Assembly: GCA_020633675.1 (NCBI GenBank)
Contig: JACKDE010000002.1
Coordinates: 624,644-688,643 of the forward strand
DNA from: Deferribacteres bacterium
GTDB taxonomy: Bacteria; Zhuqueibacterota; Zhuqueibacteria; Zhuqueibacterales; Geothermadaptataceae
DNA length: 64,000 bases
Direction: 5' to 3'
Both the position numbers and the translations under genes were made by a program. Position 1 is the stretch's first letter. The number at the start of each line of letters is the position of its first letter. The notes under the pieces were generated by a model that was given only the letters and a program-made list of their open reading frames with translations, was not told where the DNA came from and did no database searches. This document shows positions 11,979 to 58,000 of this stretch, piece by piece.

Positions 11979-13340
11979 CTAAAATCGCAAAGTGAAAACA
12001 GTACCGACATTGGGCTCGGAATGCACGGTCAGCGCACCACGGTGCAGGCGCATGATTTGTCGTGACAAACTCAGGCCGATACCGGAGCCACCTTTTTTGG
12101 TGGTGAAAAAGGGAATAAAAATTTTTGACTGCACTTCTTTCAAGATGCCCGGGCCGTTGTCCTCAACCTGAATGAGCACTCTGCTGCGCTCATCGATGCG
12201 GGCACGCAATTGAATTTGTGGCTTGTTGCGGCCGTTAAGTGCCTGAATGGCATTGACCACCAGGTTAATCAGAATTTGCTCGATCAGTTCGGGATCGGCG
12301 GTGAGTTGCAGCGAAGCGGGCATAATATTGCGGCTGATTTTTACACCAGCCTCGTTGAGCTGACTTTGAAGCAAGCGCTCAATTTGCATGCAGAGTTCTT
12401 CAACGGAAAAGATTTTAAAAACAGGTTTTGGGATTTTAGTAAGATTGCGATAGGCGTTGACGAAACGCAACAAGCCTTCGCTGCGCCGTTCGATGATTTG
12501 CAAAGCACCGCGAATGTCGGTAATGGTTTCGCCTTCAACCGTCTTTTTGGTGTTGTCCTGTGGATCCAAATCCAGGTCTTCCAGCATGCCATTTGTGGTC
12601 GCAGCCAACGAAGAGATCGGCGTGACCGAATTCATAATTTCGTGGGTCAGCACCCGAATCAGGTTTTGCCAGGCTTCCATTTCCTTTTCTTCAAGCTCGC
12701 TTTGGATGTTTTGCAGCGAGACCAAAGTGAAATTTTGTTCGCGCATGCGAAATTCTGTGGCGTAAACCGCCAGCTGCAAGATTTCATCTTCTTCGCTCAA
12801 TTGTACCAACTTTTTTTCACCGGATTTCATCGCCAGCAGTGACTGCGCAAGCTCTTTGCTGCGGCGGCTCAGCGCATGGATGTTGCGCAAATAAGGGATT
12901 TTCAGCAAGCGCTTGGCAGCCGTGTTAATGAGCTCAACCTCGCCATCGCTGCGAAAGGCGATCAGGCCGATACCGACGTGCTGCACGACGGTCTGCAAAT
13001 AACGATAGTGTTCTTCTTTTTCGGCGCGCGCCATTCGAAATTTATCGAGAACGACAGTGAACGCGGATTTCAATTCATCGAAACTGGAGCCGAGGCCGGC
13101 ACCGCCGAAGGATTGTGAAAAATCGGAATGTTTGATGGCGTCGAGGAAGCGGGCGAGATCGCGATTGGTCTTCTCGACATAGTGGATGAGCGAGTAAATC
13201 TGATAGACCGACATCATGGTGATGATCATCGTTGCGGCGTAAAATTGGGTCTGTAGCAGCAGATAAAACAACAGATAAATGGATGCGCTGATCAGCAAAA
13301 CGCGCAGCACGCAATTGATGCGAAATCGCTTATAAACCAT
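11979..13340 (-). CDS. Sensor histidine kinase (2 TM, HisKA, HATPase_c)
   Basis: H-box LTHEIMNSVTPI. N, G1 and G2 boxes (LINLVVNAIQA, DNGPGI, GGSGIGL). Overlaps the upstream response-regulator gene by 11 nt. Confidence 0.85.
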   Translation of the reverse strand: MVYKRFRINCVLRVLLISASIYLLFYLLLQTQFYAATMIITMMSVYQIYSLIHYVEKTNRDLARFLDAIKHSDFSQSFGGAGLGSSFDELKSAFTVVLDKFRMARAEKEEHYRYLQTVVQHVGIGLIAFRSDGEVELINTAAKRLLKIPYLRNIHALSRRSKELAQSLLAMKSGEKKLVQLSEEDEILQLAVYATEFRMREQNFTLVSLQNIQSELEEKEMEAWQNLIRVLTHEIMNSVTPISSLAATTNGMLEDLDLDPQDNTKKTVEGETITDIRGALQIIERRSEGLLRFVNAYRNLTKIPKPVFKIFSVEELCMQIERLLQSQLNEAGVKISRNIMPASLQLTADPELIEQILINLVVNAIQALNGRNKPQIQLRARIDERSRVLIQVEDNGPGILKEVQSKIFIPFFTTKKGGSGIGLSLSRQIMRLHRGALTVHSEPNVGTVFTLRF

Positions 13341-14706
13341 ACTTTCCCAACCTGCGGTAGAGCGAAGTACGCGTCAATCCAAGTTCGCGCGCCGCCTGGC
13401 TGATGTTGCCGCCGTACTTGCTCATGGCCTTGCGGATCACCATTTTTTCAACATCTTCCAGATTGTAGTTATCGAAAATCATGCTGTCCTCACTGCTCTC
13501 CGGTGTGTTGAAATAGAAATCGCCGGGCTGGATCACCTGACTATCGCTTAAAATCACTGCCCGTTCAATCGAGTGCTGAATTTCGCGCACATTGCCCGGC
13601 CAGTGATATTTCAGCAGCTTTTTCATTCCTGCTGCACTGACGCGCTTGTTGGGACGGTTGTATTTTTTGGAATACATTGCCAGAAAATGGTCGGCCAGCA
13701 GTGGGATATCCTCCTGGCGCTCGCGCAAAGGTGGCAGCGAAATTTCGACGGTATTGATACGGTACAACAAATCCTGGCGGAATTCACGATTGCTCACCAT
13801 TTCCAAAATCGGCAAATTGGTGGCGCAAATTAGCCGGATGTCGATGTCGATCGCTTTGTTCGAGCCGATGCGAGTGATTTTGCGGTTTTGCAGAACAGTC
13901 AACAATTTGGCCTGCAACGGCAGCGGCAGGTTGCCGATCTCGTCCAGAAAAAGGGAGCCGCCCGAAGCGATTTCAAAACGCCCGGTTCGATCTTCCTTTG
14001 CATCTGTAAACGCGCCTTTAACGTGACCGAACAACTCACTTTCGAACAGCGTTTCGGTGAGTGCGCCCATGTCGACGCTGATAAACACCTCATTTGCACG
14101 CTTGGACTGCCGGTGCAGCTCGCGGGCGACCAGCTCTTTGCCGGTGCCGTTCTCACCCAAAATCAACACATTGGCATCGGTTTTCGCCACCTTGCTGATG
14201 GTGTCGAAGACTTTTTGCATCGCCGGGCACACACCGATAAAATCGGAAAAGGGCTGGTCGAGATCGGCGCTCAATGTTTTCTGTTTCGAGCGCAAACTGG
14301 CGGCTTCAATGCGTGACTGCCGCAGCCGCATTGCGGCAAAAATCGTCGCTAACAGCTTCTGGTTTTCCCACGGTTTCAGCACAAAATCGACCGCGCCTTC
14401 TTTGATGGCGCGCACGGCCATTTCAACATCACCATAGGCGGTAATCAACACCACCACCGCTGATGGATCGATATCGAGAATTTTTTCCAGCCACAGAAAG
14501 CCTTCGTAGCCGCTGCTGACATCGCGGGTGAAATTCATATCCAGCAAAATGACATCGTAGCTTTCGTTTTTGAGCAGCGTTGAAATCATCTCGGGATTGG
14601 TTTCTGTATCGATTCGCTCGAGATGCTGTTTGAGAAAGAGCTTCGCGGCTTGCAGCACATCGATGTCGTCATCGATAAAAAGAACTTTGCCGACTTTGGT
14701 ACTCAT
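13330..14706 (-). CDS. Sigma-54-dependent response regulator (REC, AAA+, Fis-type HTH; NtrC family)
   Basis: VLFIDDD receiver. Walker A GENGTGKE. GAFTDA (GAFTGA-like) sigma-54 contact motif. C-terminal HTH. The start is moved to MSTKVGKV, which has an AGGA RBS. Confidence 0.9.
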   Translation of the reverse strand: MSTKVGKVLFIDDDIDVLQAAKLFLKQHLERIDTETNPEMISTLLKNESYDVILLDMNFTRDVSSGYEGFLWLEKILDIDPSAVVVLITAYGDVEMAVRAIKEGAVDFVLKPWENQKLLATIFAAMRLRQSRIEAASLRSKQKTLSADLDQPFSDFIGVCPAMQKVFDTISKVAKTDANVLILGENGTGKELVARELHRQSKRANEVFISVDMGALTETLFESELFGHVKGAFTDAKEDRTGRFEIASGGSLFLDEIGNLPLPLQAKLLTVLQNRKITRIGSNKAIDIDIRLICATNLPILEMVSNREFRQDLLYRINTVEISLPPLRERQEDIPLLADHFLAMYSKKYNRPNKRVSAAGMKKLLKYHWPGNVREIQHSIERAVILSDSQVIQPGDFYFNTPESSEDSMIFDNYNLEDVEKMVIRKAMSKYGGNISQAARELGLTRTSLYRRLGKYGL

Positions 14707-14831
14707 GTTCTTTATCCTGTTTTCATTTGGACTGGAAATTGAATCATTGCGACAAGCTATTATGGAATTTGCCGGTTTGAAAAGTGTATTCAATATGGCA
14801 AAAAAAGTGCAAAAATCAAAATAGAACACGG

Positions 14832-14855
14832 CGGGCAAATGCCGCCGTTCCTATC
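14832..14855 (-). terminator. Candidate terminator hairpin in the permease/RR intergenic region
   Basis: acggcgg-gcaaat-gccgccgt stem-loop with a T-rich tract following on the minus strand. Confidence 0.3.
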
Positions 14856-17959: not shown

Positions 17960-19348
17960 CTACGCCTGATGCGAAGAATCCATTTCCTTGCTGTCTTTGG
18001 GCTGGATGTCATATTCTTTCAACCTGCGGTACAGTGTGGTTTTGGAAAGGTCGAGAATTTTGCAGGCTTTTTTCTGGCTCCCATTGGTCTCGCGCAGCAC
18101 TTTGAGAATGTAATGCTTTTCAACTTCTGCCAGCGTTGCCGGGCGATCCTGTACCGGCGGCAAATAATCAAGACTCTGCAACAGGCGCGGTGGCAAATGC
18201 ACCGTGTCGACTTCGGCACTGCTGGACAGGGCAACACCGTGCTCGACAGCATTCATCAGCTCGCGCACGTTGCCTGGCCAGCGATAGCTGGTCAGGGTAT
18301 GCAGGGCAGCCTGGGAGAAGTGCAAATCAGACTTGCCCGATTTTTCGGCAAAGGTGCGCAGGAAGTGCTGTGCGAGCAACGAAATGTCATCATCCCGATC
18401 ACGTAGTGGCGGCAAATGCAACGGGATCACGGCAACCCGGTAAAAGAGATCCTCCCGAAACTCACCGCTGGCCATCATTTTGTGCAAATCTTTGTTGGTG
18501 GCAGCGATGATGCGTACAGACACACGCCGGAGTTCATTGTCTCCAACCCGGCGGATTTCGCCATTCTGGATGAAACGTAACAGTTTGACTTGCAAAGTCG
18601 GGCTCATTTCTGCAATTTCATCCAGAAAAAGTGTTCCGCCATCTGCTTCTTCGACCAGGCCGCGTTTGCTCGAAATTGCGCCGGTAAATGCCCCCTTCAC
18701 ATGTCCAAACAATTCGCTTTCCAACAGTTGCTCGGGCAACCCGCCACAATTAACCGGCACAAACGGTTTTTCCGCGTAGTGGCTGTAGTGATGGATCATG
18801 CCCGCGATCAGTTCCTTGCCTGTGCCGCTTTCTCCGGTAATCAGTACGCTGCTGTCAGTGCCGGATACCGCCAGGGCTTTCTTGATGATTTGTTGCATCA
18901 CCTGATTGACCGTGATAATATTTTTTACGCCGAACTGATCGCGCATGCTGCGTTCGAGATCGCGGATCCGTTTGCGCAAGGCATTGCGTTCCATGGCTTT
19001 CGCAACGGTTTTCGTGAGCGCCTCATCCTGCATGGGCTTGGTCAGGTATTCATAGGCGCCGCTGCGAATCGCTTCCACGGCCGTCTCGACAGCGCCGAAT
19101 GCCGTCATCATGATGACCTCGGTGTCAGGCAAAACGCTTTTGGCGTGCTTAAGCACATCCATGCCGTTGCCATCCTGCATCACGAGATCGCTGATCACCA
19201 CATCAAATATCTCGCGGTTGATTTTGCGTAGCGCATCCTTGCTACTCTGGGCTTCCTGGACCTCGTAGCCCTGCTTTTTGAGTGTAAGCACGAGCGTTCT
19301 GCGCACAGCGCGGTCATCGTCTACAACCAGAATTTGAGCCATATTCAC
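17960..19348 (-). CDS. Sigma-54-dependent response regulator (NtrC family)
   Basis: ILVVDDD receiver. GESGTGKE Walker A. GAFTGA motif present. C-terminal HTH. Confidence 0.9.
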   Translation of the reverse strand: MNMAQILVVDDDRAVRRTLVLTLKKQGYEVQEAQSSKDALRKINREIFDVVISDLVMQDGNGMDVLKHAKSVLPDTEVIMMTAFGAVETAVEAIRSGAYEYLTKPMQDEALTKTVAKAMERNALRKRIRDLERSMRDQFGVKNIITVNQVMQQIIKKALAVSGTDSSVLITGESGTGKELIAGMIHHYSHYAEKPFVPVNCGGLPEQLLESELFGHVKGAFTGAISSKRGLVEEADGGTLFLDEIAEMSPTLQVKLLRFIQNGEIRRVGDNELRRVSVRIIAATNKDLHKMMASGEFREDLFYRVAVIPLHLPPLRDRDDDISLLAQHFLRTFAEKSGKSDLHFSQAALHTLTSYRWPGNVRELMNAVEHGVALSSSAEVDTVHLPPRLLQSLDYLPPVQDRPATLAEVEKHYILKVLRETNGSQKKACKILDLSKTTLYRRLKEYDIQPKDSKEMDSSHQA

Positions 19349-24011: not shown

Positions 24012-24368
24012 CTATGCTTTTTGAGCATGGAGTCCTTGCAGCGCATCTTGCAGGTTTTCGAAATGCATGATGTATTTGGACAGGCCGACCATGTTGAAGA
24101 TTTTCTGAAAGTGCGGCGACAAGCCACATGCGCGTATTTCCTGCTGGATTTCCTGCGCACGGGTCAGCATGCTGATGATGATCGACATGCCGGCCGAGTT
24201 GATATATTCGACCTGACTGAAATCGAGTACAATATGCTTGGTTTTGGGCGTGGCGCATTTATCATAGGCATTGATGAGCCGTTGCTCGGCTGTATGGGTC
24301 AGATCGCCGTTCATTTTAAGGGTAGCGATAGCGCCGTCGAGTTCGAGATGGACCTGAAAGTTTTCCAA
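24012..24368 (-). CDS. STAS-domain anti-sigma-factor antagonist (RsbV/SpoIIAA-like)
   Basis: 118 aa. LDFSQVEYINSAGMSII with the conserved phosphorylatable Ser context. Confidence 0.85.
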   Translation of the reverse strand: MENFQVHLELDGAIATLKMNGDLTHTAEQRLINAYDKCATPKTKHIVLDFSQVEYINSAGMSIIISMLTRAQEIQQEIRACGLSPHFQKIFNMVGLSKYIMHFENLQDALQGLHAQKA

Positions 24369-24419
24369 TTTGTGCTCCGAAGATATGAGAATGTCAAAAG
24401 GCTAATATTCTTAAATAAA

Positions 24420-24881
24420 TCAAACCACTTCCGCAGGCTGCAATTTCATGATCAGCCGCGTGACATGGCCGTGCCGTGAGGAAATACCGAATTCCACCTG
24501 GTCGACCAGGTTTTCGATCAAAAAAATACCCCAGCCGCGCGGCGCATCTTTTTTCGAAAGCTTGCGCTCCAGCACCGGTTTTGGCGGATGTTTTTGAATG
24601 CCCGCACCATGGTCATAGATTTCAATTTCGAGCGTGTTGTCTTTAAGGTAATACAAAATATCCACCGAAGTGGTCGGTGACATTTTGTTGCCATGCTGCA
24701 TGGCATTGATACATGCCTCAGCGGTTGCGGTGCACAAATCCTGGCTGCGATCCGGTGGGATGCCGGCAATTTCAGCCAGTTCTGCCGCCGCGTTCATGGC
24801 GATTTTTTCATAACCAAAGGTGGAAGGGATCATCAATCGGACGATTTTCTCTTCGCTTTTGGCGGATGCGGTTTTTTTCAT
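24420..24881 (-). CDS. RsbW/SpoIIAB-like serine-protein kinase (anti-sigma regulatory factor, HATPase_c)
   Basis: EACINAMQHGN N-box. DHGAGI G1 box. 153 aa. Confidence 0.8.
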   Translation of the reverse strand: MKKTASAKSEEKIVRLMIPSTFGYEKIAMNAAAELAEIAGIPPDRSQDLCTATAEACINAMQHGNKMSPTTSVDILYYLKDNTLEIEIYDHGAGIQKHPPKPVLERKLSKKDAPRGWGIFLIENLVDQVEFGISSRHGHVTRLIMKLQPAEVV

Positions 24882-24894
24882 AGGACTGCTGGCG

Positions 24895-26406
24895 TTAACT
24901 GAACTTTAAAATGACGAGAGTGATGTCATCTGAATGATTAACGCTGCCGGCAAATTGTTCGGCACTGGAAATCAGGCCTTTCAGCATATCCGGCAGATTG
25001 CCGTTGGCGTTGTGCTCGATCGCATCTTTAAACCGATCGAAGCCGAAGGGCTGATAGCCGGTGCCATTTTTTTCATCGGCCAATTCGACGATGCCGTCGG
25101 TGTAGCAAATCAGCGTATCACCAGACTGAATGTCGAACGTTTGTTCCTGAAAACGGACATCCGGGCGAATACCGAGCGGAAAGCGGTCAGCGTCGGATTG
25201 CGCAAGAAATTCTGCCTTGGCCTTGCGCAATAAAATCGGCATCGTTTGACCGGCGTTGGTGTAGGAAAGTTTGCGCGCCCTGCGGTCATAAATGCCAAGA
25301 AAAACAGCCACAAACATGGTGCGTTGAATGTCGCGCACCAGCCGCCGGTTGGCGAGCTGCAGGATTTCGTCGGTTGTTTGCCGCATGTCGGCCGCGAAAC
25401 GTAAGGCGCTCATGGCGCTGCTCATGCCAATGGCGCCGGAGATGCCTTTCCCGGACACATCGCCGATGACGATAGCAAAACGATTTTCGTCCAGCGGGAT
25501 GATGTCGTAAAAATCGCCACCCACTTCATTTGCCGGAATCGATTGCGCCTCGATCACGGCGCCGGGCAGTTGTGGTTGGCGTTGTGGCAGCATTTCCCGC
25601 TGCAACCGGCGGGCGATTTCGAGCTCCTGCCACACTCGGGTGTTTTGCTTCAAGCCGGAAAGCATTTTGTTAAAATGGTCTGCCAGGCCGCTGATCTCAT
25701 CCCTGGTTGCATTCACCGGGATGGTTGCATCCAGATTGCCGGCAGCCACTTCTTTGGTAACGGAAATCAATTGCCGCATCGGCCGGAACATGCGGATCAC
25801 CGCAATATTGATCAACACTAATGATACAAAACCGACAATGCCGATCACTTCGATGACCCGTTGCCGAACGGATTCGGTGCTGCCGTATATATCGCTTTCA
25901 TAGCCGGAAGCCATCAATACCCATTTCCACGGCGCGAAATAGATATAGTAGCCGATTTTGCGCTCACCCTGGCGGCCTTTGGCATCAGTGCCCTGTGTAT
26001 AGGTGAGTAGATGTCCGTGGCGACTGACGCCTTTCTTGACTTCGATATCGATTTCGCCAAGTATCTGCTGGATGTGATGAAAATCTTCGATGTATTTGCC
26101 GACATCGGTGGGATGAATCACCAGTCGCGCTCGGCCCGGTTCTTCGGTGGAAAAAACGAAAATATAACCTTCCTTGCCGATCCGCACATCGTGGATGGCG
26201 CGGGCAAGCTCGTCGGTTGGCTCGCCGTTCAGCGCATGGAATTTTTCGCACAACGTATAGGCATAGTCGGTTTGCGCGTGCAGAAGTTCCCGTGCCAACT
26301 GCTCAAGCTCCTGCTTGGACTGCCGGAAGGATAGCACGCCAACCAGCACGGCAGTTGCGATAATATCGAAAATAATGACCAGGCTAAGCTTCGTTCGCAA
26401 AGTCAT
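24895..26406 (-). CDS. Membrane-bound PP2C-type serine phosphatase (RsbU/SpoIIE-like) with periplasmic Cache-like sensor and HAMP
   Basis: TM, then about 150-aa extracytoplasmic domain, then TM, HAMP (EISGLADHFNKML) and PP2C/SpoIIE (GDVSGKG, TDGIVE). Overlaps the upstream EBP gene by 23 nt. Confidence 0.85.
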   Translation of the reverse strand: MTLRTKLSLVIIFDIIATAVLVGVLSFRQSKQELEQLARELLHAQTDYAYTLCEKFHALNGEPTDELARAIHDVRIGKEGYIFVFSTEEPGRARLVIHPTDVGKYIEDFHHIQQILGEIDIEVKKGVSRHGHLLTYTQGTDAKGRQGERKIGYYIYFAPWKWVLMASGYESDIYGSTESVRQRVIEVIGIVGFVSLVLINIAVIRMFRPMRQLISVTKEVAAGNLDATIPVNATRDEISGLADHFNKMLSGLKQNTRVWQELEIARRLQREMLPQRQPQLPGAVIEAQSIPANEVGGDFYDIIPLDENRFAIVIGDVSGKGISGAIGMSSAMSALRFAADMRQTTDEILQLANRRLVRDIQRTMFVAVFLGIYDRRARKLSYTNAGQTMPILLRKAKAEFLAQSDADRFPLGIRPDVRFQEQTFDIQSGDTLICYTDGIVELADEKNGTGYQPFGFDRFKDAIEHNANGNLPDMLKGLISSAEQFAGSVNHSDDITLVILKFS

Positions 26407-27937
26407 CTGCGTGATCCCGATAGGTAATATTCAATCGTTCCATTTTTCGCTGCAAGCCAAGCCTGCTAAGACCAAGGCGGCGCGCCACCTCGCTTTTGTT
26501 GCCGCCCGCGTCTTCTAACGCCTTTTTGATCATTCGCGTTTCCAGTCGATCCACGGCTTCCCGCAGGTCTGCCGGTTCATCATCGGTTTCTGCCTCGGTT
26601 GTGTTGCTTGCGAAGAAGTGGCTGGAAAGGTGCTCAGGCCGGATCACATCGCCATCCTCGGCCAGGGTCACCAACCTTTCAACCTCATTTTCGAGTTCGC
26701 GAATGTTCCCGGGCCAACTGTATTTTTCAAAAACGTGCAGCGTTTCCGGCGCGAAACTGATATCCCGCCTGCTGATTTTCTGCTGGATTTTTTCGATAAA
26801 ATGATGCGAGAGAATCGCAATGTCTTCACGCCGTTGTCGCAATGCCGGCAATCGCAACTCCAGAACGCTCAGGCGATAGTATAAATCCTCCCTGAACCGT
26901 CCGGCTTTGATTTCGGCTTTCAAATCTTTGTTGGTGGCGGCCACTACCCGCACGTTGACACGGATTTCGCGCGTGCTGCCAACCCGCCGCAGGGTTTGCT
27001 CCTGCAAGGTGCGCAATAGCTTTGCCTGCGAGTTCAATGGCATATCACCGACTTCATCGATGAAAAGCGTGCCTGTGTCGGCTTGCTCGAAATAGCCGAT
27101 GTGCTGACTGACGCCAGTGGCGGTACCTGCTTCGATGCCAAAAAACTCCGATTCGACCAGGTTCTCAGGAATCGCTGTGCAATTGATCGCGACAAACGGA
27201 TTGTTGGCGCGCAGGCTGGCGTAGTGGATGGCGCGAGCAGCCAACTCTTTTCCCGTACCGGTCTCACCTACGATCAGCACGCTGGCATCGCTGCGGCCAA
27301 AGCTTTGAATGTTGCCGAGAATGGTCTGTAGTGCCCGGCTCGATCCGATGATTTTTTTGCTGGCATCTTCCTGCCGGACTTGTTGGCGCAGGGTCAGATT
27401 TTCGGCTGTCAGCTTTTCTTTTGCCGTGCTCAGTTCATCGTAGAGATTGATGTTTTCAAGCGCGCTGCCGGCATAGCTGGCGACGGCGTGCAACAGGCGC
27501 TCGTCATCGCGGCTGTAAGGCTCGATGAGGATCTTTTTGCCAAAAAAGAAGCCGCCGACGATTTGGTCGCGCACAATCACATGCTCCCACAGAGAGAAGG
27601 ACAGATCGTCCTGAGAGCGCTTTTCGGTGAGTTCGGTGAGAATTTCCTGTTGACGCCGGGCGGTAGCCTGACTGAATTCATTTCCAAGGTGCTGTTCAAG
27701 TTCTGCGCCCTGGCTTTCGGACAAGCCGCGCATTGCCGTGCAACGCCAGGAACCATTTTCATGCGCCAGCGCCAGTGCATTGCGCGCACCAAAAGTCCCT
27801 GCGATGGTTGCCAGAATTTGCGCATAGACTTCCTGCTGCTTGCGGGATCGGCTGATTGCCTGTGCGATTTCGAGCAGCGTTTTGAGTTGAAAAACCTGAC
27901 GTTCCAACTCCCAAATTGTTTTATCCTGTTCGCTCAT
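26384..27937 (-). CDS. Sigma-54-dependent transcriptional activator with N-terminal GAF domain (no receiver)
   Basis: GAF-like N-terminus. Walker A GETGTGKE. GIEAGTATG as a degenerate GAFTGA. C-terminal HTH (EVARRLGLSRLGLQRKM). Confidence 0.85.
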   Translation of the reverse strand: MSEQDKTIWELERQVFQLKTLLEIAQAISRSRKQQEVYAQILATIAGTFGARNALALAHENGSWRCTAMRGLSESQGAELEQHLGNEFSQATARRQQEILTELTEKRSQDDLSFSLWEHVIVRDQIVGGFFFGKKILIEPYSRDDERLLHAVASYAGSALENINLYDELSTAKEKLTAENLTLRQQVRQEDASKKIIGSSRALQTILGNIQSFGRSDASVLIVGETGTGKELAARAIHYASLRANNPFVAINCTAIPENLVESEFFGIEAGTATGVSQHIGYFEQADTGTLFIDEVGDMPLNSQAKLLRTLQEQTLRRVGSTREIRVNVRVVAATNKDLKAEIKAGRFREDLYYRLSVLELRLPALRQRREDIAILSHHFIEKIQQKISRRDISFAPETLHVFEKYSWPGNIRELENEVERLVTLAEDGDVIRPEHLSSHFFASNTTEAETDDEPADLREAVDRLETRMIKKALEDAGGNKSEVARRLGLSRLGLQRKMERLNITYRDHADDFANEA

Positions 27938-27975
27938 TGTTGCTAATGTGTTTTAGAAAATCGTAAAGAGCAAGC

Positions 27976-28002
27976 AAAAAAAAACCCCGAAATTGTTCGG
28001 GG
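27976..28002 (-). terminator. Rho-independent terminator after the wHTH gene, about 40 nt upstream of the EBP start
   Basis: ccccgaa-attg-ttcgggg stem preceded on the plus strand by a9, which is a T9 run on the minus strand. Confidence 0.6.
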
Positions 28003-28040
28003 TTTCGCTATCAAAAGATTTCGGTACGGATGCATATCCG

Positions 28041-28241
28041 CTATTTCAGGGAAGCTTTTACCGTGTTGCCTGATTTGGCCAGAGAGACTTTGTCCTCCCG
28101 CGCCAGCCAGCCAAGTGCTGCATTCAGGGTGAATGCATCGGTTTTCAGCTTGGTTTTCAATTTGGCAGCAGTCATTTCGCCATTCTCATTCAGCTCATGC
28201 CAAACTTTCCCTGCCATTTCGCCTATCGATTGATTTGTCAT
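28041..28241 (-). CDS. Small winged-helix (DUF2582-like) DNA-binding protein
   Basis: 66 aa from MTNQSIGEMAGKVWHELNENGEMTAAKLK. AGGAG RBS. Pattern typical of wHTH/DUF2582. The ORF-track N-terminal extension was discarded. Confidence 0.5.
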   Translation of the reverse strand: MTNQSIGEMAGKVWHELNENGEMTAAKLKTKLKTDAFTLNAALGWLAREDKVSLAKSGNTVKASLK

Positions 28242-28461
28242 TTTATCGCTCCTATTCCTAACAAACATCAAATATAAAAATAGTCCTATTAATAGGCTCA
28301 AAAAACGAAGGCGATTATACTAATCGACGAACTCAATGTCAAGTTTATTTTTTGTTGCGTTAGCTTCAAACTTCGATAACATTGTCGATTGTACCAAGTC
28401 AATGTTGCTTTTGCAAAAGTGAATCTTTACCTTTGCTGTTGGATTGAAAATCGGAGTCGTT

Positions 28462-29406
28462 ATGAATGCGGAATGCCCGGGGGTAGGAGAAAGCACTGCC
28501 TTTCAGGAAATTGTTCGACAGGCCACCATCTTTGCGCGGGTCAACCGACCATTGCTGATTCGTGGCGAACGAGGTACAGGCAAAGAGCTCGTTGCCCGCT
28601 TTATCCATTTGAAAAGCAGTCGAATCGAACAAAACTATGTAACGGTTAATTGTGCGGCATTTCAAGAAGAGCTATTTTTGTCCGATATGTTTGGACATGA
28701 AAAGGGTGCATTTACGGGTGCGGTGCAGAGTAAACCGGGAAAGTTGGAACTCGCGCATTGCGGCACCCTGTTTCTTGATGAAATCGCCAACATGACACGC
28801 ACCGCCCAGGAAAAGTTGCTGCGCGTGATCGAATATCAAAAATTCGAACGCATCGGTGGAACTGAATCGCTGCAAGTGGATGTCCGAATCATCGCGGCTA
28901 CAAATGCGCCGCTCGAAGAAATGATGCAAAATGGCGAATTCCTTCCTGATTTATATGACCGTTTGTGCTTTGCGGAGTTGACCTTGCCACCGCTCCGCAA
29001 GCGCCGCGAAGATATTCCAATGCTGATCGATCATATCGTCCAGCAATTGCATGCTGAAATTCCTGATTTGGAACGTAAGACCTTCACCCAATCTGCTGTC
29101 AAAGAGATGCAAGCGTACCACTGGCCCGGGAACATCCGCCAGCTTAAAAATGTGGTTGAGCGTCTCTATATCTTCGACGAAGACGGCGTCATTCATGCAT
29201 CGGAATTGCCGCTTGAAATTACGGCTGTTGAACCGCTGGGTAAAACCTTCCACGAACGTGTCACAGCATTTGAAAAGACACTGCTGACGAATGCACTCAA
29301 AGATTGTCAGGGCAACCAGCGTGCTGCCGCGCAAGTGCTTGGTATGTCCTACGACCAGTTCCGACATTACTTCAAAAAATATAAACTTGGGGAGTTGTTG
29401 GCGTAA
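28462..29406 (+). CDS. pspF: PspF-like sigma-54 activator (AAA+ and HTH only, no receiver)
   Basis: PLLIRGERGTGKE Walker A. Sigma-54 interaction domain. C-terminal HTH. About 315 aa, like PspF. ATG at 28462 with a GGAG RBS. Divergent from the wHTH gene and upstream of the pspA-like operon. Confidence 0.7.
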   Translation: MNAECPGVGESTAFQEIVRQATIFARVNRPLLIRGERGTGKELVARFIHLKSSRIEQNYVTVNCAAFQEELFLSDMFGHEKGAFTGAVQSKPGKLELAHCGTLFLDEIANMTRTAQEKLLRVIEYQKFERIGGTESLQVDVRIIAATNAPLEEMMQNGEFLPDLYDRLCFAELTLPPLRKRREDIPMLIDHIVQQLHAEIPDLERKTFTQSAVKEMQAYHWPGNIRQLKNVVERLYIFDEDGVIHASELPLEITAVEPLGKTFHERVTAFEKTLLTNALKDCQGNQRAAAQVLGMSYDQFRHYFKKYKLGELLA

Positions 29407-29474
29407 AACACCAACAGTTGGCGTTGTTTCCCACCTTTCTCCACCCTCCTGTCTCCTTTTTGAGCTCACCCGTA

Positions 29475-29492
29475 TTTGGTACGTCAGTTGCT
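29475..29492 (+). promoter_or_regulatory. Sigma-54 (-24/-12) promoter
   Basis: TTGGTACGTCAGTTGCTT has GG and GC exactly 10 nt apart (TGGTAC-N5-TTGCT versus consensus TGGCAC-N5-TTGCW). It lies about 85 nt upstream of the small membrane ORF and the pspA homolog. Confidence 0.6.
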
Positions 29493-29576
29493 TTAACAAG
29501 CGCGAACAACGAAAGTGAAACGAGACGTGAGCTTGCTGCAGATGCAAACAAGCCGCTGCTCACAGGAGGAGATCAA

Positions 29577-29774
29577 ATGACGGAACAAGCTTCAGAAGAT
29601 TCATCATCCACACCATTTTGGTATGTATTGGGCTTGATGATGTTTTTGGTGGCGCTTGTTTTTTTAGCTGCCTTTTTTGAAAAAACATTGGGCCTGTTTG
29701 AATTTTCAAGCGAAATCTGGAATATTCAGAAAATGCTATTCGGTGGAATTATGAGTTCGGTTTTGAACTTTTAA
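29577..29774 (+). CDS. Small single-TM membrane protein (LiaI/PspB-like position upstream of pspA)
   Basis: 65 aa. Strong RBS AGGAGG. Acidic N-terminus then TM WYVLGLMMFLVALVFLAAFF. First gene downstream of the sigma-54 promoter. Confidence 0.55.
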   Translation: MTEQASEDSSSTPFWYVLGLMMFLVALVFLAAFFEKTLGLFEFSSEIWNIQKMLFGGIMSSVLNF

Positions 29775-29835
29775 ACTTTGCAAAAATGTATAGAATAAGC
29801 GCCAACACATCACAATAAAATTCAGGAGTAAAAAA

Positions 29836-30537
29836 ATGAACCTGCTGAAAAGAATCTCAACCCTTGTTACAGCCAATATCAATAGTTTACTCGATATGGC
29901 TGAAGATCCGGAAGTGATGGTAAAGCAAATCATTCGGGATATGGAAGAGAGTATCATCGAATTGCGTCGTGAGACTGTGCGTGCTGTTGCACGTGAGAAA
30001 CAGCTCGAAAAACAAATCCTCAGCACAGAAGATCGCCTGAATGATTTCGACAAAAAAGCTGAAATTGCGCTCGGGAATGGTGACGAAGAGCTGGCAAAAA
30101 ACATGCTGGTGCAAAAGGTTGCCGCTGACAAGCGCAAGACTCTTTTGGAAAAAGAATTCGAAATGGCAAAGGCGACGTCGGCAGAGTTGAAGCAAGATTT
30201 GTCCAAACTCGAAGATCAAGTACAGGTTGCACGGCAGAAAAAGGAAGAGTTGATTCGACGCAAACGCGCTGCTGAGTCGAAGTTGCAGACGCAGAACATC
30301 CGTCGCAAATCGATTGAAGCCATGCAAACCATCGCGGCTTCAATAGCCAGCTTCGATGGCTCTGCAAAAAATCTCGAATCGTACGAGCAAGCCATTCAGC
30401 AGCTCGAAGCAGAAGCTGAAGCAACTCAGGAAATTCTGGATCTTGAGTCAAAAAATGATATCGATCTGGAAAAATTCGATAAAGAGAAAAAGGTCGAAGA
30501 TGAACTGGCAAAGCTGAAGCAGCGGTTGAAAAAATAG
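29836..30537 (+). CDS. pspA: Phage shock protein A (PspA/IM30/LiaH family)
   Basis: N-terminus ...NANINSLLDMAEDPEVMVKQIIRDMEESIIELR matches the PspA helix-1 signature. Coiled coil throughout. 233 aa. Confidence 0.9.
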   Translation: MNLLKRISTLVTANINSLLDMAEDPEVMVKQIIRDMEESIIELRRETVRAVAREKQLEKQILSTEDRLNDFDKKAEIALGNGDEELAKNMLVQKVAADKRKTLLEKEFEMAKATSAELKQDLSKLEDQVQVARQKKEELIRRKRAAESKLQTQNIRRKSIEAMQTIAASIASFDGSAKNLESYEQAIQQLEAEAEATQEILDLESKNDIDLEKFDKEKKVEDELAKLKQRLKK

Positions 30538-30701
30538 CCTTTGCTTCGTTGAGCTTTGGATTTATCAGCAAGCCGTCAATAGAAGTGCCTCTGTGCATCT
30601 TTCACTTGCAGTGAAGCCAGCGGGACTGAGGATAAATGTGCTCAGCAATGATGTATCTTTTTAAATTTTCGACACTCATTGCTGAACGAGGAGGGTTTTT
30701 C

Positions 30702-31274
30702 ATGGAAACAATATACCTGGTCTGTCTGATATTCGGAGGATTTTTCCTCGCTGTATCGATCTTTGCGGGTACCGAAGCGGATGCAGATTTCGGACTGGAG
30801 ACCGATGCTGATTTTAATACGGAATCAGCCGAACTTGGTGGAGAAGGCGTCACATCTGCGATCCAGTACCTGAGCTTTCGAAATATCGTCTTCTTTGTTG
30901 CCTTCTTTGGATTGACTGGATTCGCGCTTTCAAAACTGGAGACGCCGGCGATTGTGGCGTTTGCGATTGCCAGCGCACTTGGTTTCTTCGCCGCTTCGGT
31001 TGGCCATAAAGTGATGTCCTACCTGCGCGATTCGGAGGTCAGTGGCACAATGGATCTGCGTGATCTCGAAGGGCAGAGCGCTAAAGTGGTCGTGAATTTA
31101 ACGAAATCGAAACGGGGCAAAATATCGGTGAATTCCCGGGACCGGATTTTCCAGCTTCTTGCACTGGTCGCGGATGAAGCCAGCAAAGATGCATTCCAAT
31201 TTGGCGATTCGGTAACCATTATACGGGTTGAAAGCAATGTCGTTTATGTTGCCGAACCGGATTTCATTCAATAA
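30702..31274 (+). CDS. NfeD-like membrane protein with C-terminal OB-fold (YqiJ-like)
   Basis: Three TM helices, then a beta-rich OB domain (AKVVVNLTKSKRGKISV...VTIIRVESNVVYV). Positioned immediately upstream of flotillin, as for yqiJ-yqiK and nfeD-SPFH pairs. Confidence 0.7.
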   Translation: METIYLVCLIFGGFFLAVSIFAGTEADADFGLETDADFNTESAELGGEGVTSAIQYLSFRNIVFFVAFFGLTGFALSKLETPAIVAFAIASALGFFAASVGHKVMSYLRDSEVSGTMDLRDLEGQSAKVVVNLTKSKRGKISVNSRDRIFQLLALVADEASKDAFQFGDSVTIIRVESNVVYVAEPDFIQ

Positions 31275-31291
31275 ATATACCGAGGAGGTAG

Positions 31292-32707
31292 ATGATGCTA
31301 GAGAGTATTGTTGTAACTGTCGTGATGATTGTCGGCCTGGTGATTTTGACTGTGATGTTATTCATCAGCCGCTTTCTGCTGATCTGCCATCCAAATGAAG
31401 TGATTGTGCTTTCCGGGCGGCGCCGTCAGGTAGCCGACGGAGCGACTGTTGGATACCGCATTATTCGTGGCGGTCGGGCTCTGCGCATCCCGATTCTTGA
31501 AAAAGCCGCCCGCATGTCGCTTGAGACGATCCCGTTGGAACTGAGCGTGCAAAACGCATACTCGCGCGGAGGCATTCCCCTTAAAGTCGAGGCGATTGCC
31601 AACATTAAAATCGATTCAAGCGAACCTGCATTTGGGAACGCAGTCGAGCGGTTTCTCAATAAGCCACAGGGTGATATCCACGAAATCGCCAAGGATACCC
31701 TGGAAGGCAACTTGCGCGGCGTGCTGGCAACCTTGACACCAGAAGAAGTAAATGAAGACCGGCTGAAGTTTGCCGGCAGCCTGATCGATGAAGCCGATAG
31801 TGATTTGAAGCAATTGGGCTTGCAATTGGATACACTTAAAATACAAAATGTATCTGATGAAGCAGGCTACCTTGACTCGATCGGTCGCCGCAAAACTGCC
31901 GAAGTGATTTCAGCTGCACGCAAGGCTGAAGCTGAGAAAACTGCAGAAGCAGAAGAGGCGGAAGCCGCAGCCAAGCAACGCGCCGAAATTGCAAAAGCCC
32001 GCTCCGACCGTGAGATCCGTGCCGCACAAATCGAAGCCCAGCGTGATGTACAAACAACAGAAGCCGTCGCTCAGCAAAAAATAGAGGAAGAACGGAACAA
32101 CCTGCGTGTGAAAAAAGCTGAGCTTGAAAAAACCGCCGTCATTCGCGAGCAGGAAGCCAGCGTTGCCGGTGAGAAAGCCCGTGCTCAATACGAACAGGAG
32201 ATGGAACAGGAACGCATAATACTGCAACAGAAACGCCTGACAGCAGATGTGATTGAGCCTGCGCGTGCCAAGAAGGAAGCGATGGAACTGGAAGCCAAAG
32301 GTGCGGCTGCCAAGATTCTCGAAGACGGCCATGCCCGTTTGCAAGTGATGGCACAAACCATCAAAACCTATCAAAGCGCCAATGGCGAAGGTGAAAAAGT
32401 CTTCATGCTAAACATGCTGCCTGAAATTATCGCGCAACTGGTTGAAACCGTTTCCAAGGTCAATATCGAAAAGGTTAGCGTAATCGATTCCGGTTCCAGC
32501 AATGGCCATGGTCATGGAGTCAGTCGCTTTGTCAACCAACTGCCTGCTGCAGTGCTTTCACTAACGGAGCAAATCGAAAATGCAACCGGCATCAATATTC
32601 TGAGCCAGTTTCAAAAGCATGAACTGTCTGAACAACCGGAAAAAGCGACACCAAAAACAGGACGTTCCCGTAAAAACAACCAACACGATACTGCACAACC
32701 TGCGTAA
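31292..32707 (+). CDS. Flotillin-like SPFH/band-7 protein (YqiK/FloT-like)
   Basis: N-terminal TM. SPFH domain (VIVLSGRRR...GYRIIRGG). Long E/A/K-rich coiled-coil flotillin region. 471 aa. Confidence 0.85.
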   Translation: MMLESIVVTVVMIVGLVILTVMLFISRFLLICHPNEVIVLSGRRRQVADGATVGYRIIRGGRALRIPILEKAARMSLETIPLELSVQNAYSRGGIPLKVEAIANIKIDSSEPAFGNAVERFLNKPQGDIHEIAKDTLEGNLRGVLATLTPEEVNEDRLKFAGSLIDEADSDLKQLGLQLDTLKIQNVSDEAGYLDSIGRRKTAEVISAARKAEAEKTAEAEEAEAAAKQRAEIAKARSDREIRAAQIEAQRDVQTTEAVAQQKIEEERNNLRVKKAELEKTAVIREQEASVAGEKARAQYEQEMEQERIILQQKRLTADVIEPARAKKEAMELEAKGAAAKILEDGHARLQVMAQTIKTYQSANGEGEKVFMLNMLPEIIAQLVETVSKVNIEKVSVIDSGSSNGHGHGVSRFVNQLPAAVLSLTEQIENATGINILSQFQKHELSEQPEKATPKTGRSRKNNQHDTAQPA

Positions 32708-51539: not shown

Positions 51540-52922
51540 TTATTTCACACCGTATTTTTTCAGTTTGTAGCGCAGGTGTCGTTCGCTCATACCCAAAAGT
51601 TCCGCTGCTCGCGTCTGCACGCCTGCTGTTTGCTGCAGCGCCTTCCTGATGAGCATTTGTTCGAACGCTTCCACCCGCTCAGTGAATGTCCCTTGCGAAA
51701 AATCGCCAGCCACTTCGGCCTCAGCCCTGGGCTCACGAACATGGATTGGAAAATCATCAACGGTGAGCACTTCTGCGCGCGACAGCACCACTGCCTGTTG
51801 CACAATGTTTTCCAGCTCGCGCACATTGCCGGGGTATCGATATTTAATTAACAAATCGATCGCCTCACGCGAAATGCCGCTGATTTTTTTACCATTTTCT
51901 TCTGCAAAGCGGTTTACAAAACGGTCGATAAGCGGCGGGATGTCTTCACGGCGCTCGCGTAGGGGCGGAATGCGGATCGTGACGACATTGAGCCGATAGT
52001 AGAGATCATCACGGAACGTGCCGTCATTTGTCATCGCTTCCAGGTCGCGATTGGTAGCAGCGACCAGCCGAATGTCAGCGTGGATGGTCTCCGAACCGCC
52101 GATGCGTTCGAAGGTTTTTTCCTGAAGCACCCGCAGCAACTTGACCTGCACGGCAGGCGGAATTTCACCGATTTCATCGATGAAAAGCGTGCCGCCTTCG
52201 GCCAGCTCGAAGCGGCCTTTGCGCTGGCGATCCGCGCCAGTGAATGCGCCCTTTTCATGCCCGAACAGTTCGCTTTCAAGCAAATTTTCCGGCAGTGCTG
52301 CACAATTAACCGCAACGAATGGCTTGTCCTTGCGTGGGCTGGCGAAGTGAATCGCCCGCGCAACCAGCTCCTTGCCGGTGCCGGTATCGCCCATAATCAA
52401 TACGGACGCCTGGCTCGGTGCAACCCGGCCGGCCAAATTGAGTACCTGCTCCATCGCTGATGATTGCGAGATGATACTTTCGAAACGAAAGCGATGTTCG
52501 AGCTGATCGCGCAGCTGCCTGTTTTCCTGAATGAGTTGCCTGCGCTCCGTGGCTTTGCGGATAATGAGCAAAAGTTCCTGCAAGTCGATGGGTTTGGTGA
52601 GATAATCGAACGCACCGAGCTTCATGGCTTCCGTGGCTGATTCTATGCTGCCGAATGCGGTCATCAGCACAACGTCGATTTCCGGGCTGATTTTTTTGAG
52701 CTCACTCAGCAACTCAACACCGGTCATCCCCGGCATTTTGTAATCCGTCAACACAATATCGATGACGTTTTCTTTGGCGAGTTGAATGGCCCTGGCTGGC
52801 TGATTCGCCTGCAATACATGATATTTTTGTTTGATGAGAAAACCAGCCAGACTCTCCAGTTGGGCCGGCTCATCATCAACAACCAAAATGGTGAATTTCA
52901 TGATTTTTCCATGGTTTGTCAC
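51540..52922 (-). CDS. Sigma-54-dependent response regulator (NtrC/AtoC family)
   Basis: ILVVDDEP receiver. [15 protein letters not shown]-terminal HTH. A 4-nt overlap with the upstream histidine kinase. Confidence 0.9.
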
Positions 52923-56598: not shown

Positions 56599-56605
56599 CG
56601 TTCAA

Positions 56606-57784
56606 TCAAAAGCTCACTTCCACGCCCAGCGTACCGACACCGGCAGAGAAATCGTAATAGAGATCATTTGACTTGTTTTGAATAAAAAGATACTCGAGAT
56701 AGAGTTTTAAATCTTTGCTAAACTGGCTGAGGCGAAAAGTCTTTTCAAGACTGCCCCAGGCTTGTTGACGGGTATCGACGCGGAGAACATCGCCAACCAG
56801 TGACTCGCCTTCAAGATCGAGCGCCAGGCGCTGGTAGTCTTTGCTGTAATGATCGTAGCCAAGTCGCAACATGATGCCTCGTGGTAGCAGCGTTGACAGC
56901 ATAGCGCCAGTCTCTATGCTCTCGTAGCCATACCGATCATCGTACAGTTCGTCTTCGGTAAAATAGCCGGTTTCCAGACCGGAGAGGAAACGTCCGTCGC
57001 CACCAAAATTGCTGCGATTGCGCAGGTAGCCGCTCAGTCCGATCTTTTCGAACAGCGATTGCGAAACGCGAACCGAATTGACCCATTGTTTTGCGCTTGG
57101 ATTGTCAATTTCAGTGTAGACAAAATAGCTGCCATTGCCTCGCAACCGGCCACCCCGGCTGCTATCATCGACCGGCGCTCTCTCTTCCGCAACAACCTGC
57201 GAAACATAATTTTTATAACCCAATTCGCTCGAGAAAATGAAGGTTGTTCGCGAAGGTAATGAAAAATTCAGCCGCGTAAAAACGATATGTTCCCAATTGC
57301 TGAGTTCCTGCAGATTGGTATAACTGCGGTTTCGTACCTGATAGCCGGCATAGAGAATACCAAGTCCGGAAACTGGCAGCTTCAGGTTTGAATAGGCTGC
57401 AAATTCTGAAAAATCATAAATCTCATAATCTGCACCATCGAGGCGAAAAGACATGAGAGCACCAAGACTTAAAAGCCCACTGCCGGAGCCCAGGCTGCGC
57501 TGGCTTGCCAGGCCAATTTGATGAAAGGAGAAGGTGCGCGAACTATTATCCGCAAAATGGTTTAAATAGCCGTCATAATAAAACTGGCCCGACCATTTGG
57601 ATGCCAGCCAGGCTTTGGATAGATCCAGATTCGCTTGCGAAATGACATCTGCGGTCTGGGCGTAATTTCGATAGGCATTTCCATCGAGACTGGTTGTGAG
57701 TGAAATTGTTGACTGCAACTGAGCTGATCCTATGGTTGGTAAAAGCATCCAGAACAAGGCCAGGACGCGTCGTTTGCTTCTCAT
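56606..57784 (-). CDS. Outer-membrane beta-barrel protein (porin-like)
   Basis: Signal peptide. Alternating amphipathic beta pattern. C-terminal ...GVEVSF ending in Phe. AGGAG RBS. Stop is 8 nt before the cytochrome start. Confidence 0.55.
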   Translation of the reverse strand: MRSKRRVLALFWMLLPTIGSAQLQSTISLTTSLDGNAYRNYAQTADVISQANLDLSKAWLASKWSGQFYYDGYLNHFADNSSRTFSFHQIGLASQRSLGSGSGLLSLGALMSFRLDGADYEIYDFSEFAAYSNLKLPVSGLGILYAGYQVRNRSYTNLQELSNWEHIVFTRLNFSLPSRTTFIFSSELGYKNYVSQVVAEERAPVDDSSRGGRLRGNGSYFVYTEIDNPSAKQWVNSVRVSQSLFEKIGLSGYLRNRSNFGGDGRFLSGLETGYFTEDELYDDRYGYESIETGAMLSTLLPRGIMLRLGYDHYSKDYQRLALDLEGESLVGDVLRVDTRQQAWGSLEKTFRLSQFSKDLKLYLEYLFIQNKSNDLYYDFSAGVGTLGVEVSF

Positions 57785-57965
57785 TGTATCATCTCCTTCT
57801 ATTGCAAATTGTTTTTTTGCGAAATGTTTATTTGAACTTATTCAATATGTATGCCAATATTTTTGTTTTGTTTTAAAGTATTGAATTTAATGAAATTGTA
57901 GTGAAAGCAAATTTTGCTGGATCATTATTGGCTCGACCAAATGGTCGGCTTTTCGACCTGTTCGT

Positions 57966-58000
57966 CGCAAAAAAAAGTGGGAGCCTTTTCAGACTCCCAC
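57966..58000 (-). terminator. Rho-independent terminator after the TSP3-repeat gene
   Basis: gtgggag-cctttt-cag-actcccac stem preceded on the plus strand by a8, which is a T8 run on the minus strand. Confidence 0.55.

Follow-up and report, generated by a model that had tools for sequence, protein, structure and literature searches.

What does a partner-switching module control when no sigma factor is encoded beside it? This question is raised by a locus in a 64-kb stretch of DNA from a Deferribacteres bacterium (candidate division KSB1; contig JACKDE010000002.1, positions 624,644 to 688,643), hereafter called the window. In this locus, the gene of an enhancer-binding protein (EBP) is followed by the genes of a PP2C phosphatase, an RsbW/RsbT-like serine kinase and a STAS protein; all features of the locus lie on the minus strand, between positions 20997 and 28342 of the window. 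Partner switching is textbook sigma-factor control, and few of its non-sigma outputs are understood. For EBPs, the known modes of control are receiver phosphorylation, ligand-binding domains and dedicated anti-activators. On balance, the locus is probably a sigma-less partner-switching module in which the co-operonic EBP serves as the output via its GAF domain.

The association between the EBP and the switch genes is conserved. Open reading frames (ORFs) in the comparison loci come from a crude procedure that was seeded with homology matches and took the longest ORF, and the E-values of the scripts relate to small local databases. Three loci with kinase identities of 59-72% (L001-L003) have kept the genes for DUF2582, EBP, PP2C, kinase, STAS and a beta-lactamase-fold protein, and the overlap of 23 nucleotides (nt) between the EBP and PP2C genes is common to the window (26384-26406), L001 and L002. 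All six genes are also kept in a KSB1 locus with 48% kinase identity (L018, 17-nt overlap), and EBP, PP2C and kinase are kept in a Calditrichaceae locus with 41% kinase identity (L036, 4-nt overlap). The order EBP-PP2C-kinase is retained in the metagenome contigs L096, L098, L099 and L101; among L096-L101, this order comes with gaps of 6-172 nt. The EBP-PP2C-kinase core is conserved in KSB1 and Calditrichaceae, mostly with overlapping genes, down to 41% kinase identity. Since the order, and usually the overlap, is kept in independent assemblies to this level, the cluster is not due to chance, and the proposal of an earlier note on this DNA that the EBP is in one operon with the PP2C is borne out.

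In the window, the PP2C and kinase genes are 13 nt apart and the kinase and STAS genes 51 nt. The STAS gene is less constant in the relatives. In the sister clade (EBP-PP2C-kinase at 2123-5670 in L036, 1189-4686 in L099 and 3941-7691 in L101), a search of all frames of the visible flanks at E <= 10 finds no STAS-like ORF, and the kinases keep all catalytic boxes. Because these three loci have a kinase and no STAS in their flanks, STAS is placed outside the conserved EBP core. The next gene in L099 and L101 encodes a hybrid histidine kinase/receiver.

The part of the EBP through which control would be exerted is its N-terminal domain, residues 1-190. Pfam reports no GAF domain in these residues at E <= 0.01. 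A phmmer search against the PDB returned the GAF domains of DosT/DevS (E 9e-5). In addition, an AlphaFold (AF2) model was obtained with a pLDDT of 92 and a pTM of 0.82, and the top 50 PDB matches of Foldseek are almost all GAF domains or GAF-containing sensor modules (prob 1.00), including 3ci6, 2vzw, 3cit, 4g3v and the GAF domain of the Aquifex EBP Nlh2. As modelled, residues 1-190 are a long helix followed by a GAF fold; this helix+GAF domain is called NDOM below.

NDOM is also present on other proteins. Kinase homologues with 40-44% identity are encoded in operons with the order Lnt, GAF-PP2C, kinase, STAS and class III cyclase. The N-terminal 170-190 residues of these cyclases are homologous to the N-domain of the EBP over its full length (phmmer E 2.9e-15, 6.6e-10 and 1.2e-8), and Pfam assigns a weak GAF plus Guanylate_cyc to the NDOM cyclases. 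The hallmark of NDOM is the helix motif [EDK]L[EQD][RK][QR][VM]F[QH]L[KQR]TL, followed by GTFG or GNFG and then by the GAF core. A reciprocal metagenome scan, in which NDOM was the only query and no kinase or STAS information was used, yielded 68 loci. All cyclase-type NDOMs for which 900 nt or more lie upstream (23/23) come after kinase, STAS or PP2C genes on the same strand, and all EBP-type NDOMs with downstream sequence (4/4) are followed by a Cache-HAMP-PP2C, plus the kinase where the contig reaches it. The apparent exceptions to this linkage among the 68 loci are all contig ends. NDOM is also found on HisKA-HATPase kinases (L115, L154) and on a rhodanese protein (L145, L149, L156), in both cases beside STAS. 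A weaker form occurs in the PP2Cs of the acidobacterial triads (380-400 amino acids), whose N-terminus consists of this helix (ETIDLQQQVFRLQALLEAS) and a short segment resembling a GAF domain.

Because NDOM recurs on different outputs beside orthologous kinase and STAS genes, the most economical reading is that it is the interface by which the kinase/STAS pair controls the attached effector, which in the window would be the EBP. The earlier note had suggested the EBP or another non-sigma output as the target of the switch, and the recurrence of NDOM gives substance to this. A word-index search for NDOM found two homologues only, and an exhaustive search was crowded with multi-GAF proteins. For this latter reason, the score alone cannot define the NDOM subfamily, which appears to be set apart by its N-terminal helix motif and not by sequence score. 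None of the ten candidates in a Rosetta-stone search proved to be a fusion of NDOM with STAS or kinase.

Two of these gene arrangements are described here in their own right. In L149 (3941-9104), and also in L145 and L156, the order is sCache-PAS histidine kinase, receiver-STAS fusion, thioredoxin-like protein and helix+GAF-rhodanese protein; the receiver-STAS fusion has Gly at the phospho-site, and an RsbW-like kinase is missing. In two Desulfobacterota-like loci (L163, 3347-5768; L164, 2099-6003), an NDOM cyclase beside kinase-STAS repeats the linkage pattern. There, an MMPL/cNMP-binding/GGDEF protein is followed by one or two kinase-STAS pairs, a small cNMP (cyclic nucleotide)-binding protein and the helix+GAF cyclase, a gene content that suggests cross-talk with cyclic nucleotides.

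No sigma-70-family gene was found in the 64-kb window, either by Pfam on the likely-gene ORFs of at least 150 amino acids or by probes on all ORFs of at least 60 amino acids; a few short extra ORFs were included in the Pfam scan, and overlapping ORFs judged spurious were left out. The probes were RpoE, SigF, SigB and RpoD regions 2-4, in approximate sequence, and were run on the window and on 164 related loci (1.6 Mb). Two ORFs resembling the extracytoplasmic function (ECF) type in the 164 loci matched, neither of them adjacent to the kinase, and in this probe search no sigma gene adjoined the kinase in any of the loci. A cognate, co-encoded sigma target is absent from the window, and none is adjacent in the 164 related loci. 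A scan of species-representative genomes with the kinase alignment gave at least 80 loci, mostly from Acidobacteriaceae and otherwise from Latescibacterota, Desulfobacterales, KSB1 and Calditrichaceae, and nearly all of the loci listed are bare PP2C-kinase-STAS triads. Being sigma-less appears to be a property of the whole kinase subfamily, including the triads of Acidobacteriota, Latescibacterota and Desulfobacterales. Sigma-less partner switches are also known experimentally, namely SiaABCD (PMC7647112, PMC8457831) and HsbR/HsbA/HsbD (PMC5085249, PMC6482189). Since the whole kinase subfamily lacks sigma genes and such systems have been described, the missing sigma gene is ordinary. The earlier statement that no sigma factor is present in the locus therefore holds for the whole 64 kb, but it does not make the locus special.

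The switch components themselves carry the expected features. In the PP2C, two hydrophobic segments (approximately residues 7-27 and 184-206) flank the Cache domain, which is therefore placed outside the cytoplasm, in agreement with the periplasmic sensor that had been proposed. The metal-site motifs GGDFYD, GDVSGKG, TDG and DDITL are intact. The best named NCBIfam similarity of the PP2C is to SiaA, a partial match of 88 bits against a cut-off of 700, and the Cache domain shows a weak NCBIfam resemblance to the carboxylate-sensing sCache_2 receptors CtpM and MctS. The kinase has intact N, G1 and G2 boxes of the GHKL type (EACINAMQHGN, DHGAGI and RGWGIFLI). It scores 49 bits against the RsbW cut-off of 145 and 43.9 bits against the SpoIIAB cut-off of 135, far below both, and is not an equivalog of either by NCBIfam. 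The STAS protein passes TIGR00377 (59.3, cut-off 53.45), and its Ser58 (YINSAG) aligns with the DSSG of SpoIIAA, the reference sequence being approximate. The catalytic and phospho-acceptor motifs of PP2C, kinase and STAS are all intact, and the cassette has the predicted enzymatic equipment of partner switching without a sigma target or an RsbW equivalog.

The earlier note also expected the output to be sigma-54-dependent transcription. The Walker A, Walker B and Arg finger (FREDLYYRL) motifs of the AAA+ domain are intact, and in NCBIfam the EBP is below every equivalog cut-off. At the place of GAFTGA in the L1 loop, G[TV]ATGV is present in all 14 distinct NDOM-EBPs (window, L001, L002, L018, L036 and L094-L102), with the Thr retained and the Phe changed to Ala. 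Among the other EBPs of the data set, those whose L1 loop can be read have GAFTGA or GAFTDA (9/9; three more are partial or unreadable), and in the window the response regulator EBPs and the PspF-like protein have a canonical loop. The window contains four EBPs besides the NDOM-EBP, three of which were read directly as GAFTGA or GAFTDA, and also a -24/-12-like psp promoter, which together give no more than indirect support for rpoN in the genome. In PspF, F85 and T86 contact region I of sigma-54 (PMC3467059), and GSFTGA, GAYTGA and GAFSGA are tolerated natural variants of the motif (PMC6615313); the GTATGV of the window EBP is neither GAFTGA nor one of these. Because G[TV]ATGV is found in all EBPs of this family and no -24/-12 promoter was found in the locus, the sigma-54 dependence put forward in the note is not secure. 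The G[TV]ATGV loop is clearly under selection, and the protein is predicted to work as an EBP-type AAA+ activator. The density of EBP genes in the window is unusually high, with five at 13330-14838, 17960-19348, 26384-27937, 28444-29406 and 51540-52922.

In the proposed mechanism, an extracytoplasmic ligand would bind the Cache domain, and the signal would pass via HAMP to set the activity of the PP2C, which would strip the phosphate that the kinase places on Ser58 of STAS. STAS without phosphate would then capture the kinase. Kinase that is free of STAS would bind, and possibly phosphorylate, NDOM and thereby hold the AAA+ domain in one activity state; its capture by STAS would flip this state, and ring assembly and ATP-driven transcription activation would be allowed or prevented. 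That the kinase is the EBP-proximal partner in the EBP type is put forward tentatively, as about an even chance or slightly less. The kinase is favoured because it is present in every EBP-type locus that extends far enough, and STAS is not. RsbW-sigma, RsbT-RsbU and NifL-NifA bear a functional resemblance and are precedents for a kinase in this position. A relay through Ser phosphorylation of STAS, as described in the earlier note, may be part of the mechanism but not the whole story, as the sister clade keeps EBP-PP2C-kinase with no STAS in the visible flank.

Several points weigh against this mechanism. We infer the coupling of the switch to the EBP from gene neighbourhood and domain homology. 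NDOM is not separated from ordinary GAF domains by a sharp score gap, and many multi-GAF proteins score well; in addition, it has no Ser or Thr that is invariant across the output types. The NDOM histidine kinase of L162 has no kinase or STAS gene within 5 kb. Finally, the three loci in which NDOM on the rhodanese protein stands beside a receiver-STAS without phospho-Ser, and no RsbW-like kinase is nearby (L145, L149, L156), point to STAS as the direct partner. STAS would then be an effector like SiaC or HsbA: in one phospho-state it would bind the helix or GAF domain of the EBP and so switch the AAA+ domain, and the role of kinase and PP2C would be limited to setting the state of Ser58. This fits the cyclase-type loci, where the STAS gene directly precedes that of the NDOM protein. 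It has precedents in SiaC, whose binding sites on SiaD are conserved N-terminal stalk motifs (PMC8457831), and in HsbA-HsbD (PMC5085249). However, the kinase is kept in L036, L099 and L101, where no STAS-like ORF is seen, and direct action of STAS on the EBP is considered unlikely.

Co-transcription without direct coupling is rather improbable. The switch would in that case control a sigma factor or other target elsewhere, and the EBP would share the operon through a parallel response, with a small ligand bound by its GAF domain, or by regulating the switch genes. EBPs are abundant, so that with five in 64 kb some adjacency is expected, and small molecules are the usual ligands of GAF domains; in Bryobacteraceae, a GAFTGA EBP divergent from a PP2C-kinase-STAS operon with a -24/-12-like site suggests transcriptional linkage there. 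This explanation is opposed by the overlapping EBP/PP2C genes that are conserved to 41% kinase identity, by the lack of an adjacent sigma gene in all 164 loci (0/164) and by the lack of a -24/-12 site upstream of the window operon. Moreover, the helix+GAF domains on cyclases, kinases and PP2Cs are likewise tied to kinase or STAS, and transcriptional control cannot explain the cyclases. It is very improbable that the EBP is itself the kinase substrate, dephosphorylated by the PP2C, with STAS (where present) as a competing pseudo-substrate. The EBP-PP2C-kinase loci without STAS keep their kinase and phosphatase motifs, and a phosphatase needs a phospho-substrate; T48 of GTFG/GTLG is invariant in 13 of 13 EBP-type N-domains. 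T48 is, however, mostly Asn in the cyclase-type NDOMs, NDOM has no STAS-like phospho-site motif, and a STAS gene could lie elsewhere in the genomes that seem to lack it. No substrates other than STAS folds are known for RsbW-type kinases.

The proposed control of the EBP by the switch through NDOM can be compared with multiple known systems. The chemistry of PP2C, GHKL serine kinase and STAS, and the compact phosphatase-kinase-STAS operon order, are the same in RsbU/RsbV/RsbW-sigmaB and SpoIIE/SpoIIAA/SpoIIAB-sigmaF of Bacillus subtilis. In contrast to these systems, the window locus and its 164 relatives have no adjacent sigma gene, the window phosphatase is a transmembrane Cache-HAMP sensor, and the presumed target is an AAA+ activator. 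In the stressosome pathway, the switch kinase RsbT is released or held by STAS partners and docks on the N-terminal regulatory domain of the output enzyme RsbU. The acidobacterial relatives, which carry helix+GAF on the PP2C itself, resemble this arrangement. However, the docking domain here would be a GAF fold, whereas that of RsbU is helical, the output here is a transcription activator, and RsbR and RsbS genes are not present in the window locus.

SiaABCD of Pseudomonas aeruginosa likewise combines a HAMP-PP2C, a kinase, a small phospho-switch protein and a non-sigma output in one operon. The switch protein of the window is a STAS protein (Ser), whereas SiaABCD has SiaC, and the output is a GAF-AAA+-HTH (helix-turn-helix) activator, or a class III cyclase in the relatives, whereas the Sia output is a GGDEF cyclase. 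With neither SiaC nor a GGDEF cyclase, the locus appears to be an analogue of SiaABCD and not a member. HsbA of P. aeruginosa is a STAS antagonist with phosphorylation-dependent non-sigma partners, including the nearby-encoded cyclase HsbD (PMC5085249, PMC6482189). In contrast to the window locus, HsbR is a fused receiver-PP2C-kinase under a phosphorelay, no GAF docking domain has been described, and no EBP is involved.

EBPs that are regulated by a separately encoded protein, and not by receiver phosphotransfer, are known from the anti-activator systems NifL-NifA, PspA-PspF and HrpV/HrpG-HrpS. Further points of likeness are the GHKL domain of NifL, the GAF domain of NifA and the partner-switch-like relief of HrpV by HrpG. 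NifL is, however, a large PAS-containing protein and no family-level homologue of the 153-residue kinase. The GAF domain of NorR represses the sigma-54-contact surface of its AAA+ domain and is a precedent for GAF control of an EBP (PMC2941729). None of these systems, NorR included, has a Ser kinase/PP2C/STAS cycle, and their EBPs have the canonical GAFTGA. The locus is a member of none of SiaABCD, HsbA-HsbD, RsbT-RsbU, NifL-NifA, PspA-PspF and HrpV/HrpG-HrpS, and is analogous to all of them. Within an incomplete coverage of the literature, neither a described partner switch acting on an EBP nor a description of the helix+GAF domain as a switch interface was found; the partner-switch work in Chlamydia concerns sigma-66, and its sigma-54 effects are indirect only.

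The EBP, PP2C, kinase and STAS genes form one tightly packed unit downstream of the terminator of a winged helix-turn-helix (wHTH) gene and behind a conserved promoter-like motif of their own. In this motif, the CTTGC and CACATTA columns are invariant and at fixed spacing in five loci of the KSB1 clade (window, L001, L002, L018 and L100), where the sequence from the wHTH terminator to the EBP start cannot otherwise be aligned. CTTGC-N19-CACATTA occurs once in the window and is the probable promoter or operator of the EBP operon. If so, the wHTH gene is a unit apart, with strong expression and a terminator of its own. The terminator hairpin (28006-27981) has a dG of -17.8 kcal/mol and a z of -3.9, with 0 of 200 shuffles equally stable; its T run ends approximately 35 nt upstream of the EBP ATG, and equivalents of hairpin and T run are present in L001, L002 and L018. 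The DUF2582 gene, which encodes the wHTH protein, is found at the same upstream position in L001, L002, L018 and L100, in the KSB1 clade only. Its ATG at 28241 is preceded by AGGAG, and an alternative longer start, a TTG at 28301, is unlikely. The gene order, the 23-nt overlap and the wHTH gene with its terminator upstream of the EBP, as first described in the earlier note, are confirmed by the domain calls and coordinates (Table 1).

A search for -24/-12 sites (GG-N10-GC, at most two mismatches) found none within the operon or ahead of the wHTH and NagZ/PBP4B genes. Since no such site precedes the window operon, sigma-54 autoregulation is unlikely there. One GG-N10-GC formed by the terminator stem and TTGC was judged coincidental; it is absent in L018, and in L002 the conserved motif is 75 nt further on. 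Autoregulation by the EBP was rejected for the KSB1 clade, as its operons bear sigma-70-like promoters. The EBP operons of the sister clade have TTGACA-17-TATAAT followed by a TGTTAAC-N3-GTTAACA palindrome (L098, 4290-4345; L101, 3855-3910), which is likely a repressor operator.

Table 1. Predicted features of the partner-switching locus and its flanks (window coordinates).
Feature	Position	Strand	Remarks
Promoter TTGACA-17-TATAAT, sigma-70-type consensus	28342-28314	-	12/12 hexamer match; precedes DUF2582 gene
DUF2582 winged-helix protein, 66 aa (amino acids)	28041-28241	-	Pfam PF10771, E 3.6e-20
Intrinsic terminator of wHTH gene	28006-27972	-	11-bp stem, loop of 4, T9
Promoter-like motif CTTGC-N19-CACATTA	27944-27974	-	Between wHTH terminator and EBP start
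EBP (GAF-AAA+-HTH), 517 aa	26384-27937	-	Sigma54_activat E 5.6e-65, AAA_lid_14, HTH_8
EBP N-terminal helix (motif ELERQVFQLKTL) + GAF (NDOM), residues 1-190	27368-27937	-	
EBP AAA+ domain	26855-27352	-	Pfam
EBP Walker A (GETGTGKE)	27245-27268	-	Motif
EBP L1 loop GTATGV (context FGIEAGTATGV)	27110-27127	-	At GAFTGA place
EBP Walker B (LFIDEV)	27050-27067	-	Motif
EBP AAA lid	26585-26839	-	Pfam
EBP HTH_8 (Fis-type C-terminal HTH), residues 463-501	26435-26551	-	E 1.4e-12
PP2C phosphatase, 503 aa	24895-26406	-	SpoIIE E 5.6e-43; sCache_2/Cache_3-Cache_2, HAMP
PP2C sCache_2	25861-26238	-	Pfam
PP2C HAMP	25648-25794	-	Pfam
PP2C/SpoIIE catalytic domain	24901-25491	-	Pfam
RsbW/RsbT-like GHKL serine kinase, 153 aa	24420-24881	-	HATPase_c_2 E 4.5e-23
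Single-domain STAS, 118 aa	24012-24368	-	STAS E 6.6e-14; TTG start 7 nt after GGAG
STAS Ser58 in YINSAG	24195-24197	-	Aligns with SpoIIAA Ser58
GH3 (NagZ-like) + GH3_C + beta-lactamase-fold (PBP4B/AmpH-like) fusion, 982 aa	20997-23945	-	Pfam, NCBIfam

Downstream of STAS, a 66-nt spacer without a terminator leads to the NagZ/PBP4B-like gene, which is probably co-transcribed with STAS. With its hydrophobic N-terminus, the GH3/beta-lactamase-fold fusion is a putative exported peptidoglycan-turnover enzyme. A beta-lactamase-fold (PBP4B-like) gene also directly follows STAS in the relatives, with a 4-nt overlap in L002 and a 0-nt gap in L018; their post-STAS gene consists of the beta-lactamase-fold part only (L001, 10919-12171; L002, 10870-12072; L018, 8918-10108). 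An Rfam scan of the window gave zero matches.

On the plus strand, a phage-shock-like locus (28444-32707) is divergent from the wHTH gene and encodes a PspF-like EBP without sensory domain, a small membrane ORF, PspA, an NfeD-like protein and a Band_7/SPFH protein. L001 and L010 share this arrangement. This locus contains the -24/-12-like site TGGTACGTCAGTTGCT at 29477-29492. A second such site in the window, TGGCACGCAAGTTGAT (58913-58928), is located approximately 94 nt upstream of a minus-strand gene run (51540-58928) with two Pfam-less ORFs, an MtrC-like multihaem cytochrome, a PAS histidine kinase and a receiver-EBP, which may be a sigma-54-autoregulated redox operon. Both sites probably belong to other EBPs, and the targets of the NDOM-EBP may be located beyond the window. 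In two Bryobacteraceae loci (L037, 4840-8429; L044, 3982-7520), an EBP with canonical GAFTGA, a weak GAF and no HTH_8 match is divergent from PP2C-kinase-STAS, and the shared spacer contains the -24/-12-like sites TGGCCGGCGAATTGCA (L037) and TGGCAGCAGGATTGCC (L044). L037 has, in addition, a second STAS gene, which shares 11 nt with the 3' end of the EBP gene.

Two neighbours hint at a role in the cell envelope, namely the putative exported NagZ/PBP4B-like enzyme, whose gene is probably co-transcribed, and the psp genes next to the locus. On this speculative view, an envelope or cell-wall-turnover signal for the switch is plausible. The cyclase-type operons begin with the gene for apolipoprotein N-acyltransferase (Lnt).

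A Ser kinase, PP2C and STAS that feed into an EBP would join two regulatory paradigms and provide a new output class for partner switching. With such coupling, a signal sensed outside the cytoplasm by the Cache domain would reach an AAA+ activator with no histidine kinase in between. The conserved replacement of GAFTGA is an exception to the rule that is used for calling sigma-54 activators. It is possible, though doubtful, that the helix+GAF domain is a general and so far unrecognised output port of partner switches, with one cassette serving interchangeable effectors (AAA+ activator, class III cyclase, histidine kinase, PP2C and rhodanese protein) and with the window EBP belonging to a lineage that has its own polymerase interface. 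If so, the G[TV]ATGV lineage, its contact loop having been rewritten under purifying selection, may engage sigma-54 non-canonically or engage another target, and it would be a class of AAA+ transcription activators gated by Ser phosphorylation. The NDOM pattern provides a simple sequence rule for predicting the targets of orphan kinase/STAS pairs, and it may explain what the orphan anti-sigma-like kinases and antagonists of Acidobacteriota, Desulfobacterota, KSB1 and Calditrichota act on.

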